From the NCBI GenBank assembly GCA_964016885.1, contig OZ024741.1, forward strand, positions 349,804,001-349,868,000: a DNA stretch of 64,000 bases, in the 5' to 3' direction. Positions within the stretch are counted from its first letter, which is position 1. Every line of letters begins with the position of its first letter. This DNA comes from Eledone cirrhosa (Eukaryota). The position numbers and the translations under genes were made by a program. Below the pieces are notes generated by a model, which was not told where the DNA came from, did no database searches, and saw only the letters and a program-made list of their open reading frames with translations. Shown here one piece after another: positions 10,767 through 58,417 of this stretch.

Positions 10767-11177
10767 AGGAAAAGGTATGACCCCGACGGCAGAGCTCAAG
10801 CCGTTTCGACGGCTATTTCTGGAAATAGCGGTCGAAACGGCTTGAGCTCTGCCGTCGAGGTCATACCTTTTCCTATTACCCACTCTACTACCCTAAGTAT
10901 TGAGTATTCTGGTGCGTTATGGTCCATCTGGTTCTTTACCACAATTCCTTCGTTATATATATATATATATATATATATATATATATATATAGGAAAAGGT
11001 ATGACCCCGACGGCAGAGCTCAAGCCGTTTCGACGGCTATTTCTGGAAATAGCGGTCGAAACGGCTTGAGCTCTGCCGTCGAGGTCATACCTTTTCCTAT
11101 TACCCACTCTACTACCCTAAGTATTGAGTATTCTGGTGCGTTATGGTCCATCTGGTTCTTTACCACAATTCCTTCGT
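10767..11177 (+). mobile_element. Two tandem short family-A fold-back copies (10767-10953, 10991-11177) separated by (TA)n
   Basis: 53-bp arms around a 2-nt spacer plus family tail; the two copies read as identical. Confidence 0.9.
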
Positions 11178-11267
11178 TATATATATATAAATATATATAT
11201 AATATATATATATATATATATACACACAATATATAAGAACAAAAGATGGTTAAAAGAGTTCCATGTA

Positions 11268-11334
11268 TTTTATTATGCGCATTTCAAAAACAAACATCAT
11301 CATGCAATAATATTTGTGTTTTCATCAGATAAAA
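11268..11334 (-). ncRNA. Minimal type I hammerhead ribozyme
   Basis: UUUUAU-CUGAUGA-AAACACAAA/UUUGUUUUU-GAAA-UGCGCA-UA-AUAAAA. Confidence 0.82.
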
Positions 11335-12827
11335 CAGGAAGACATGATATGAAGGTTAAAAAACACTTGTGGATAGTGCAGTTTTAAATCAACATATGAA
11401 AATTAGTTTTATTTATACATACATACATACATATATATATATATATATATATATATATATATATATATATATATATATATATATATGTACATATATATAT
11501 ATATATATATATATATATATATATATATATATATATATATATGTATGTATGTATGTATGTATGTATGTATGTATGTATACGCATATATATGTGTACATCA
11601 CTCATTCAAAATCACATGAAAAGCCAACTGTATATAGCTCTATCCCGCCAATACTAGGTGAGATAACATGCGGGGTGTGCAAAAAAAATCTGCAAATCAC
11701 TTTCTGGTTTTAAAAGGTATATGAGGGTACATATGGATGACATCCCACAAACTGACCCATCAATCCAATAGAGGGCACATATTTTGTCTGTCACATTTGC
11801 TTAAAGGCGACCTATGAGGCTATGAACGGGTGTTTGGAGTTGGTGACGGTTGATGTGTGTACATAGGGAGACGTCAATCATCTGCAAAGATCAAGCAATC
11901 ACCATGTATGTATGTTGCTCCTTGTTGTAAATATATATGAAATAACAGATAACAGACAATAATCTTCGTTGACTTCGATCTTTTTAAAAGTCACCGTCCG
12001 TTTCGCGTTGTCGTACCCTTCGAATAACATACTATATATATATATATATATATATATATATATATATATATATATATATATATATATATGTGTGTGTGTG
12101 TGTGTCCGTGTATGTGTGAGTGAGAGGGAGATAAAGAGAGAGAGATAGAGAGTGTGTGTGTGTGTGTGTGTACTAAGTTAAGGCATCATAACATATATAT
12201 ATTGTATATATATATATTGTTCTTCTTTTTGGTAAATATCATCTTGGTTAAGAGAGTGGGACTGGCTTTGTGCAGTGCCTTTGCTCACTATAAAAGCTTC
12301 ACGGCACAGGCATTGCTTTATATCTGGAGATCTCTCTGCACTTGTCGCCACGTGGTACCATGGGCCCAGCACTATGTGTCAATGATTGTCACAGGTGTAG
12401 TGTTTGTACCAGAGTTTTCAAGTCGCTGGCTGGACTAAAAAGTCAAACTCGTTCAGCGCATCGGTAGGGGTTCTCCTACATGGATATAAAGTAGTGGCCG
12501 TACTCGAAAACGAGTTGGCAGCCACCACCATGTATGTATGTATGTATGTATGTATGTATATATATATATATGTATGCATGTGTATATATATATATATATA
12601 TATATATATATATATATATATATGCATGTATGTGTATATATATATATATATAAACGGAGATAGAGAGAGAGAGAAAAGGGGAGCGAGAGAGAGAAAGAGG
12701 GAAAGTGAGAGAAAGAGAGAGAGAGAGAGAGAATGAGATACCGAGTTAAATCGGATGTCACCACAGTTAAAAAGGTACACTATACATTAGTTGAGTGGTA
12801 AATATTATTATTTAATATAGAAATGGC

Positions 12828-12872
12828 TTCTACAGGACTAGAACTGTTTCGTTCGAATGAAATCATCAGGAA
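12828..12872 (-). ncRNA. Hammerhead ribozyme within fold-back 12802-12949
   Basis: UUC-CUGAUGA-U.UUC(AUUC)GAA.C-GAAA-CAG(8 nt)CUG-UA-GAA. Confidence 0.72.
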
Positions 12873-56000: not shown

Positions 56001-56082
56001 TCCGTGTGGTTGACCGACCAATAAATGTCTCTGATTTTCACCCCCATGGATTTTGTCTATTATATTCGTTTGTTATATTTTG

Positions 56083-56140
56083 ATACCTGATGATGTCACC
56101 GGATTCATACTGAACCCGGTCATTGAAATGATCATAGTAT
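56083..56140 (+). ncRNA. Minimal type I hammerhead ribozyme
   Basis: AUAC-CUGAUGA-stem II (ACCGG.UUCA/UGAA.CCGGU)-GAAA-UGAUCA-UA-GUAU, immediately followed by AATAAA. Confidence 0.88.
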
Positions 56141-58226
56141 AATAAACTTTTCAAGGAATTACACCAGTCCAGCCTCCTGTTATTTTATAATACACACAGA
56201 CACACACACACAAACACACACACATATATATATATATATATATATATATATATATATATATATATATATATATATATATATATATATATATATATATATA
56301 GGAACTAGCTGTTGAAACGGCAAGGGCTTAGCCGTCGTGGTGTACTGACTCATTCATATAACCCTACTCTACTACCCCAAGTATCGAGTACTTTAGTGAG
56401 CAATGATCTAACCAATTTCTTACCGAATCCATCTTGATATATATATATATATATATATATATACATATATATATATATATATATATATATATATATATAT
56501 ATATATATATATATATATATATATATATATATATATATATATATATATACATATATATATATATATATATATATATATATATATATATATATATATATAT
56601 ATATATATATATATATTTATATATATATACATATATATATACATATATATACATATATATAAATTTATATATATATATATATATATATATATATACATAT
56701 ATATATATATACATATATATATATACATATATATATATATATATATATATATATATATATATATATATATATATATATATATATATATATATATATATAT
56801 ATATATACATATACATACAGACTCTCCTTAGCCGTATTTTGAATACGGCCTTGTGTTAATGTGACTTTGTCGGAAAGTACAACGGTGCATATGAAGAACA
56901 TCAGAAAGGATGAGTTATGGTGGAATGTACTGTTTTCACTTATCTTTGGATGAACAATGATGGAGTGATCGGGACTTGTTTGTGGTGGTGGCGGTGGTGA
57001 TGGTGGTGGTGGTGGTGATGATGATGGTGATGGTGGTAGGAGATACCAGATGTGGTTGTTGTTGTTGTTGTTTTTGTTGTTGTTGTTGTTGTTGTTGTTG
57101 TGATGGTGGTGGTGGTGGTGGTGGTGGTGGTGGTGGTGGTGGTGGTGGTGTTGGTCGTCGTCGTCGTCGTTGTCGTCGTCGTGGTTGTGGTGGTGGTGGT
57201 GGTTTTGATGGTGGTAGTGCTTGTGGTTGTAATGATGGCGTTTGTGGTGGCGGTGATGGTTGTAGTGGTGATGGTTGTGGTGGTGGTTGAGATGGTAGTG
57301 AATACGGTGGTGGTGGTGGTGGTGGTGTTGTTGATGATGATGTTGGTGCTGGTGTTCTTATTGATGTTGATGTTGGTGTTGGTGTTGGTGGCGCTGATGG
57401 TGTATAAACAAGAGTGATGGAAATGCGGTTGTGGTTGTTATTGTTAGTGGGGTGTGTGGTGCTGGTGCTGGTGCTGGAGGTGTGAGCCTGCTGCTATTGG
57501 AAACGGTGTTGTTACATGGCTTACGGTGATATGGTAGTGGGGAGGAGGGTGGTAATGATGATATCAATTGGGATGTTGGAACTCGATGGAAGCCTATGTT
57601 AGTCGTCCTGTATAGGTACATTGGGTTTTTTTTTATTTAGAGGTGAACTCATTGTTGTTTATTATGTATAAGTCAACAGGTTAGAATTTACCTCGTTTAT
57701 TCGTTATACAATTGCTGTTACATTCAATGATAACTGTTATGCAATTCATACCAATAACCGACACACGAACATGCTATCCGCTATCTTTGCCTTTTCTACC
57801 TCTATTCCAGTGGGTCCTGTCCACCCCCACCTCCAGGAGCTGGCCAGTTTCGTGCAACCTTCACTCAAGTACTTTTGACTCATTAATTCCCCTCCTTACG
57901 TCACCCATATTATATCCTCTATCACCTCTAAGCCCTGTACTAACCAGTATATTTCTCTCCAGAAAGCTGGCTCTCTGGAATTCCTTCCACGAACGTCTTT
58001 CCTGCAAACGAAAAAAACAAAGCAAACAGCACACACACACATACACACACACACACACACAAATATATATATATATATTCCAAACCTGGGGGCACACAGC
58101 ACACACACACACACACACACACACAAACACACAAACACACACACACACACACACACACACATACACACACACACATATATATATATATATATATATATAT
58201 ATATATATATATATATATATATATAT

Positions 58227-58417
58227 AGGAAAAGAGTCAGGACCCCGACGGCTGAGCTCCGGCCGTTTCGACAGCTAGTTCGGATCTAGCTGCTGAAACG
58301 GCCGGAGCTCTGCCGTCGAGGTCCTGATTCATTTCCTATTACCCACTCTACTACACTAAGTATTGAGTACTCTGGTGCGTTATGGTCCAGCTGGTATCTT
58401 ACCACACCCTCTTTGTT
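58227..58417 (+). mobile_element. Family-A fold-back copy, tail-to-tail with the Tx1 element
   Basis: ~52-bp arms around ttcggat, plus tail; (TA)n on the left, (TAGA)n on the right. Confidence 0.88.

Follow-up and report, generated by a model that had tools for sequence, protein, structure and literature searches.

Short fold-back copies embedded in (TA)n microsatellites recur along a stretch of 64,000 nucleotides (nt) of the Eledone cirrhosa genome (assembly GCA_964016885.1, contig OZ024741.1, positions 349,804,001 to 349,868,000, forward strand; hereafter the window). These copies are 5'-truncated insertions of an autonomous Penelope-like element (PLE) with intact copies elsewhere in the genome. 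Their outer ends are fixed and their inner ends favour two spots, about -41 and the predicted cut of a hammerhead ribozyme, which, judged from the sequence, likely record the start of the element's RNA and its self-cleavage site. Positions are numbered relative to that cut, +1 being nucleotide 52950 in the long copy (51027..53050), and each fold-back runs in the order (TA)n, inverted arm from +20, forward arm, tail to +101 and (TA)n.

An initial annotation of the window had placed seven fold-backs (10767, 10991, 28902, 40637, 50822, 51029 and 58227) and three partial copies (14279, 17058 and 56301), all of which are present at those coordinates; Table 1 gives the extents found here. Some of its descriptions were revised. 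The supposedly partial copies 17058 and 56301 both prove to be asymmetric fold-backs, each ending at +20 on one side and at +101 on the other, and the copies 10767 and 10991, counted there as separate, are identical and thus represent a single event duplicated locally rather than two insertions; the second of them would be either a local duplication or an assembly doubling.

Fixed outer ends in (TA)n tracts

Both outer ends lie on a trinucleotide that the element has in common with its target. The short arm finishes with TTCC at +17, followed by TAT (+18..+20), which, as the initial annotation had noticed, occurs in the element and in the microsatellite alike; the tail end at +101 also falls on TAT. 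We searched the 3.0 Gb of the same genome, counting exact strand matches. The +20 end joined to (TA)n was found 19,357 times, two tail patterns 15,803 and 19,505 times, and a pattern for the diverged subfamily B 2,032 times, while the reversed control patterns gave no match. Twenty arbitrary 10-kb stretches contained five tail anchors, which extrapolates to about 75,000 across the genome, the margin being wide.

We then sampled 90 copies (the first 90 of 100 listed tail matches), chosen by the tail alone. The tail ended at +101 followed by TA in 85 of them and at +101 followed by other letters in two; one continued into the element body, and two lacked the end motif. By comparison, 7.7-8.7% of background positions lie near (TA)4+, so the constant end point of the tail in (TA)n that had been proposed from the window holds across the sample. 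An inverted arm lay at most 260 nt away in 57 of the 90 copies, ending at +20 in 55 and at +101 in two, and its constant start was thereby borne out. Among 30 copies chosen by the +20 end instead, 23 had a +101 partner, none had a +20 partner, and seven were long or partnerless. Insertions around intact open reading frames (ORFs) are palindromes and tandems of 5-10+ kb; in the nine of 20 such stretches with both outer ends visible, one side ended at +20 and the other at +101, in either order (9/9). Arms thus extend beyond one 3.5-kb unit and are not capped at the roughly 890 bp suggested by the window. The pairing of the two ends (9/9 and 23/30) agrees with the annotation's link to Penelope elements, its microsatellite targeting and its proposal that two complementary DNAs (cDNAs) are primed at two RNA positions and subsequently joined.

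The palindromes also appear in raw reads, which came from restriction-site-associated DNA (RAD) libraries of three other samples. Thousands of reads run from +20 and +100 into (AT)n, strand-switch joints are present as well, and the inverted arm of the 28902 palindrome is covered by 13, 7 and 12 reads in the three samples. Several insertions often share one TA tract (window 50822-53050; also loci L113, L130, L252 and L277), because each insertion leaves TA on both sides and thereby a fresh target.

The parent Penelope-like element

In other copies, an ORF lies upstream of the "890-bp arm" on the same strand. This arm is part of the 1.2-kb 3' untranslated region (UTR) of the parent (1,193 nt, ending in the hammerhead), and the long fold-back of the window has no ORF because both its arms fall within this UTR. 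The parent unit of 3,543 bp comprises the cut site, the tail, an ATG at +191, a reverse transcriptase (RT), a C-terminal nuclease-type domain, the 3' UTR and the hammerhead, and its 717-aa ORF starts at +191 of the upstream unit. A tblastn search found no ORF pieces of the parent within the window. The 5' extension proposed in the initial annotation did lead to an RT ORF, the nuclease part being recognized by motif; the family is not non-autonomous, as other loci of the genome hold the 717-aa ORF in intact form.

Of the 81 scored matches from the protein search, 80 lacked internal stops and 37 lay in frames of at least 784 codons (hand count). Since 29 ORF reads of at least 700 aa, from 32 partly overlapping loci, were 98.7-100% identical (median 99.5%), the family is young and likely active. 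The RT spans residues of about 54-480, with YRDD at residue 348. Its structural model, built from a 73-sequence alignment, had a predicted local distance difference test score (pLDDT) of 92, and its best structural matches were telomerase RT and other RTs, the top one being a telomerase (Z 16.3, 285 aligned residues, root-mean-square deviation 4.9). C-terminal to the RT, nuclease-type motifs occupy residues 572-700 (YQC at 593, YIG at 606), and Y593, Y606, G608, R617 and H621 are invariant in 73 homologues. The lone C-terminal domain gave a poor single-sequence model (pLDDT 36.7), and the nuclease did not appear in the fold-match lists, which were filled with RTs, so that this is not evidence of absence. 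Pfam returned no family for the 717-aa ORF; the sequence search of the PDB gave no match for the single protein, and a profile gave one weak match to a retron RT (E 0.035).

That the element is a PLE is practically certain. It also carries the motifs of the Hydra clade, namely RWR at 37, DKT at 117, CxCX5C at 572-580, CxxC at 670-676 and CxH at 689-700; these motifs make placement in that clade very probable. The protein was compared by eye with the published Hydra-1_Obim and Hydra-Amil proteins. One named homologue came from Argonauta. Membership of Naiad was rejected, as the RT precedes the nuclease motifs whereas Naiad, which also targets (TA)n, has an N-terminal nuclease and no canonical hammerhead. 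Three loci (L034, L043 and L046) hold more diverged Hydra-like PLE families of the same genome, and the protein search returned 92,941 first-look candidates.

The hammerhead and its core genotypes

A hammerhead near the arm start had been noticed in the window, and its core, GAAA and three stems were all found, with the predicted cut 17 nt before the TTCC end (Table 1). Stem I pairs ACCCC with GGGGT, stem II is long, and GUC stands at the cut. The minimum-energy fold reproduces the hammerhead shape, with an energy no better than that of shuffled sequences (z -0.66 and -0.46). In an alignment of nine related sequences, in which the L046 row is misplaced, 88.7% of cells were paired and covariation was not above shuffles. 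Among the 150 of 211 matches listed from an Rfam scan of the window there was no hammerhead, only hairpin and microRNA matches below the gathering score; the element accounts for a large group of the short hairpins that microRNA models pick up in this genome.

The core differs between subfamilies. It is U3-A8, and thus able to pair, in two of them, including the one with intact ORFs; the subfamily to which the long window copy belongs has C3.A8, and a third is mixed.

Inner junctions cluster at about -41

The inner junction had been thought to vary freely. Junctions are indeed individual: 48 of 49 fold-backs differ, the sole repeat being the tandem pair 10767/10991, and overlaps, templated inserts or A/T runs occur at the join. 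The stops are nonetheless clustered. Forty-five of the 90 forward arms stopped at -45..-36 (mode -41), none at -50..-46 and 14 beyond -46, and 32 of 59 inverted arms also stopped in -45..-36, although they start 81 nt from the forward-arm start. Since cDNAs of 60 and 140 nt would then stop at one and the same position, the template position rather than the length would be causal. In subfamily B, which has another sequence there, 11 of 30 stops fell at -43..-36 and none beyond -43.

The -41 position is the A of T(T/C)AGT (-44..-40), a motif kept across subfamilies. The motif resembles the arthropod initiator (Inr). Copies consisting of a single arm, without a palindrome, also begin at -45..-40 (L190, L196, L205, L210 and L227). 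In L232:2930-3585, three tandem units of -44..+215 are capped by a fold-back, and synthesis restarts at -44 every time, as it might from a small circle or by template jumps. Full-length insertions behave differently: none of 19 independent ones stopped at -41 of the upstream unit (P about 1e-12 at a rate of 45/59), and selection for an open frame does not by itself exclude full-length copies that stop there. This argues against a plain structural stop. RAD read ends at 3140, 3144 and 3155 coincide with AATT and are likely restriction ends; they were not used for the -41 stop. A literature search for run-off or strong-stop fold-back products of Penelope, with subscription papers outside its scope, returned nothing.

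Some copies fold back exactly at the predicted cut

The fold-back point of 28902, the smallest copy, is the predicted cleavage site, as first described, and this copy is not alone. A pattern for fold-backs in which the predicted cut is the end of either arm gave 458 strand matches genome-wide; the first 100 of these listed correspond to 53 loci (hand count), and hence to about 240 loci or near 1% of copies. Neighbouring intervals of equal width contained 2 matches at -3, 16 at +2.5..+4 and 96 at -1/-2. At 16 of the 53 loci, both arms reach +1 in full and a single additional A or T separates them (hand count), so overlap cannot explain these 16 junctions. One full-length copy, L258, has a forward arm that begins at the cut. 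The two U3-A8 subfamilies contributed 42 of the 53 cut-site loci, compared with 22 of 90 in the background (P 1.4e-10).

Proposed mechanism and alternative explanations

We propose that the element protein would nick both strands of a (TA)n tract, that copying of the RNA would begin at two constant internal positions (+20 and +101) and that the two cDNAs would be joined end to end at their stop points, likely via host microhomology-mediated repair. Such twin priming from +20 and +101 with joining of the cDNAs is highly probable. At its 5' end, a transcript starting at the Inr-like A (-41) would carry the hammerhead's 3' half alone, and cleavage of this transcript is predicted at the complete ribozyme near its 3' end. 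Such an RNA would therefore leave RT no start sites other than those 60 and 140 nt downstream of the 5' terminus, so that either cDNA would run off at about -41, giving a stub of 190-210 bp. Hammerhead-cut RNA would start at +1 and give rise to the 28902 class, and long copies, with their scattered stops, would need a multimeric or circular template. The whole account, including stubs as run-off cDNAs from RNA 5' ends, we consider moderately probable. In its fullest form it is tentative and, in our estimate, falls somewhat short of even chances: the genome may hold a base-resolution fossil record of the RNAs of an active PLE, in which a transcript starting in hammerhead loop II yields abortive stubs only, a self-cleaved RNA beginning at +1 tracks core pairing, and circular or multimeric RNA is the sole full-length template.

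Several observations weigh against this account. The stops near -41 are scattered over about 10 nt, and a search for a cap-derived G in 184 arms of three subfamilies was negative (G before -41 in 4/15 compared with 10/59 elsewhere, P 0.46). For the cut-site class, the -1/-2 interval is ambiguous, since nearly all its matches represent a single junction that also allows a reading in which one arm ends at +1, and 22 of the 53 junctions are perfect and also fit a CG overlap at -1/+1. The youngest subfamily is the very U3-A8 one that has the intact ORFs, which confounds age with ribozyme genotype. The 90-copy sample is confined to the first 30 Mb of one contig (C1), and L158 is a verified copy with +101 at both ends, an exception to the rule of one +20 and one +101 end. 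The C-terminal GIY-YIG-type nuclease is inferred from the motifs and invariant residues given above. For Poseidon of Anolis carolinensis, the only PLE tested in vitro, insertion did not require hammerhead cleavage, and RNA ends at the cut were not observed (PMC11167929).

The main rival keeps the same PLE and the same twin priming and regards the -41 stop as a block imposed by a folded or protein-held hammerhead on the first RT pass only. The stop does lie in the apical part of stem II, the 10-nt spread and the missing cap signal fit a block, the anole PLE ribozyme needs protein, and the +20 start is at the foot of the extended stem I, so that protein is likely bound on this structure. However, the stop position is kept in subfamily B despite a shorter and different stem II, it falls on an Inr-like motif, the Penelope pseudo-long terminal repeat (pseudo-LTR) of D. 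virilis contains a promoter composed of Inr and a downstream promoter element (DPE), and the second pass never stops there (0/19). We therefore consider a block unlikely. The 200-bp fold-backs might instead be a separate non-autonomous mini-element copied as a unit, retrozyme- or MITE-like (MITE, miniature inverted-repeat transposable element). Stubs far outnumber ORF copies (only 14 of 90 arms pass -46), and local duplicates exist (10767/10991; C1:436174081 and 436176464); but the differing junctions in 48 of 49 fold-backs, the lack of the 5' half of the hammerhead in stubs and the presence in every stub of the spacer of one parent subfamily already largely refute this explanation, which we regard as very improbable.

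Equally improbable is that the short palindromes arose from long ones by loss of the hairpin centre after insertion, in which case the cluster would say nothing about RNA. Long perfect palindromes are known to be unstable, and fold-backs of 5-10 kb exist; deletion, however, would neither choose the cut site to the base nor add one A or T, and both the palindrome-free single arms that begin at -45..-40 and the tandem units of L232 that restart at -44 speak against it. Least credible of all is that the palindromes are assembly artefacts or a DNA transposon with terminal inverted repeats (TIRs). Fold-back chimeras are a known sequencing artefact and the perfect 10767/10991 duplicate could be a doubling, but arms within fold-backs diverge by 2-12%, and the ends and strand switches recur in raw reads of the three other samples. 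A TIR DNA transposon or MITE was rejected on the one-sided tail and asymmetric ends, the 48 of 49 unique junctions and the RT-encoding parent.

Relation to known systems

The standard layout of PLEs combines partial tandems with an inverted copy truncated at its 5' end and a tail on one side (PMC8557442, PMC3846280, PMC2377424, PMC8969392), the one-sided tail of PLEs with the endonuclease (EN+) measures 30-40 bp (PMC8557442, PMC3846280, PMC2377424), and PLE inverted repeats are said to "vary in size" (PMC2377424), the paper that also places an Inr/DPE promoter in the pseudo-LTR of D. virilis Penelope. The copies described here share with EN+ PLE insertion units the head-to-head arms of variable length, the tail at one end and the tandem pseudo-LTR units, but the product met most often here is a stub of 190-210 bp whose inner junctions cluster; neither a clustered junction nor a cut-site class was found in the available text of PMC8557442, PMC3846280 and PMC2377424.

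For the Hydra clade, PMC8557442 gives an RT followed by a C-terminal nuclease, an RWK-type motif, DKT for DKG, CxCX5C, CxxC and CxH, insertion in (TA)n, a type I hammerhead near the 3' end, a nuclease that lacks the CCHH motif, no IFD and a length generally below 3 kb, the CCHH and IFD features having been looked at by eye in the Eledone protein; it also notes a 5'-truncated inverted copy of Penelope-13_HM and calls the hammerhead function in EN+ PLEs unclear. A close likeness is to Hydra-1_Obim of Octopus bimaculoides (PMC8557442), with which the Eledone element shares the Hydra motifs, the order of RT and nuclease motifs, (TA)n target and type I hammerhead, the N-terminal and RT motifs matching by eye. 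By contrast, the Eledone unit is 3.4-3.5 kb long, with a 1.2-kb 3' UTR and a tail of 81 nt; its copies number tens of thousands, its intact ORFs are nearly identical, and its hammerhead, compared with that of Hydra-1_oBim, has long stems II and III and a U3-A8 or C3.A8 core. As Hydra-1_Obim is listed with another hammerhead and length, the Eledone element is a different family; it may already be catalogued in Dfam or Repbase. In its available text, a paper on O. vulgaris repeats (PMC13282606) mentions neither hammerhead nor Hydra.

For Poseidon in vitro, both strands of an AT-rich target were nicked and extended, and two internal RT starts downstream of the hammerhead bound the tail (PMC11167929). 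The likeness to the Eledone element thus covers two-strand nicking, an AT-rich target and two tail-bounding RT starts 3' of the hammerhead. Unlike here, where both ends have TAT in common with the target, the Poseidon start site is not homologous to its target, and no RNA ends were detected at its hammerhead cut (PMC11167929), whereas here a group of copies terminates at the predicted one.

Cervera and De la Pena described PLE hammerheads of type I in pseudo-LTRs, with U3-A8 core covariation, pairs on opposite strands 100-700 bp apart and a proposal of circular templates (PMC4209133). Type, pseudo-LTR location, U3-A8 core and opposite-strand pairs all recur here; the Eledone hammerhead differs in having a real stem III and a predicted monomer fold, and the majority of stubs retain its 3' half alone. 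Non-LTR retrozymes are likewise short PLE-derived pieces with type I hammerhead sequence, but they are tandem units each with a complete ribozyme, whereas the pieces here are inverted, incomplete and individually made (10.64898/2026.07.22.740005). Retrozyme membership was accordingly rejected, the stubs being inverted and without the 5' hammerhead half, which the sole short tandem (L232) also lacks. Both the structure and two-site priming are already known, and there is no new system. The view of the copies as an undescribed system is not upheld, as the layout is published, two-site priming has been demonstrated in vitro for another PLE and the family is autonomous.

Features of the window and neighbouring elements

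Table 1. Copies of the Penelope-like element and features of its hammerhead in the window
Feature	Position	Strand	Description
Mini fold-back	10765..10957	+	Inverted arm +20..-39, forward arm -35..+101
Tandem duplicate of 10765 copy	10989..11181	+	187/187 nt identical, private changes in common
Single-arm copy, diverged subfamily B	14277..14481	-	About -102..+101, U3-A8 hammerhead core, no inverted arm
Older asymmetric fold-back	17058..17190	-	Tail arm (+100 to about +22) fused to short arm (about -39..+20)
Smallest fold-back	28900..29019	+	Both arms end at predicted cut, junction 28918/28919; belongs to the class of about 240 loci
Mini fold-back	40635..40846	+	Forward arm from -41; A-run at junction
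Mini fold-back, subfamily B	50822..51018	-	TA tract in common with 51027 copy
Long fold-back	51027..53050	+	Inverted arm +20 to about -980; forward arm about -1120 to +101
Complete type I hammerhead	52853..52967	+	Stem I pairs 52859-52863 and 52950-52954; GGAA/TTCC extends it to +17
Hammerhead core	52864-52870	+	C3.A8 mismatch in the subfamily of the long window copy
Inr-like motif in stem II loop	52906..52912	+	A at 52909 is -41; most arms stop here; inferred RNA start
Hammerhead GAAA	52927-52930	+	Followed by stem III; predicted cut after 52949
Tail	52967..53050	+	+18..+101, between both fixed ends; in full-length copies runs on into the 5' leader, ATG at +191
Older fold-back	56299..56440	+	Inverted arm 5-7 nt; forward arm about -31 to tail
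Mini fold-back, subfamily B	58225..58420	+	Forward arm from -42/-41

Other repeats lie between these copies. At 37292-37728, a perfect palindrome with 218-nt arms stands between TA tracts and carries a different minimal hammerhead in each arm; it is likely a stub of another PLE family, and the 100% identity of its arms would mean that it is either very recent or an artefact. A short fold-back with a hammerhead-like core at 12809-12942 represents a third family, a related piece of which was seen in L003. On the minus strand, a two-ORF element resembling a long interspersed nuclear element (LINE), with frames of 607 aa and 1,150 aa and an endonuclease-type start, occupies 58709-64000 and ends just to the right of the 58227 copy; relatives occur in L033, L042 and L047. 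An RT-like frame of 473 aa lies at 26285-27703 (minus strand), and its 3' end has an inverted copy 19 kb away, at 45349-45883. A minisatellite with a 14-bp unit extends over 47633-48526 (64 copies, 95% matches). Outside the window, at least 24 identical 55-bp units of ORF sequence form an array at L264:8671-9994, where a tandem of the element has its 5' junction; the array is like the product of rolling or slipping synthesis at the join.

Implications

The family is of value in that a young and very abundant PLE has left countable footprints at a predicted ribozyme cut and at a candidate transcription start, and its natural subfamilies with paired and unpaired cores, together with the intact ORFs, make the roles of the ribozyme and of circular templates testable. 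If the fossil-record reading is true, the copies would count as evidence for hammerhead cutting by PLEs in vivo and for a gating of productive transposition by cleavage and circularisation, and the default product of this element would be a 200-bp palindrome in (TA)n, made tens of thousands of times.

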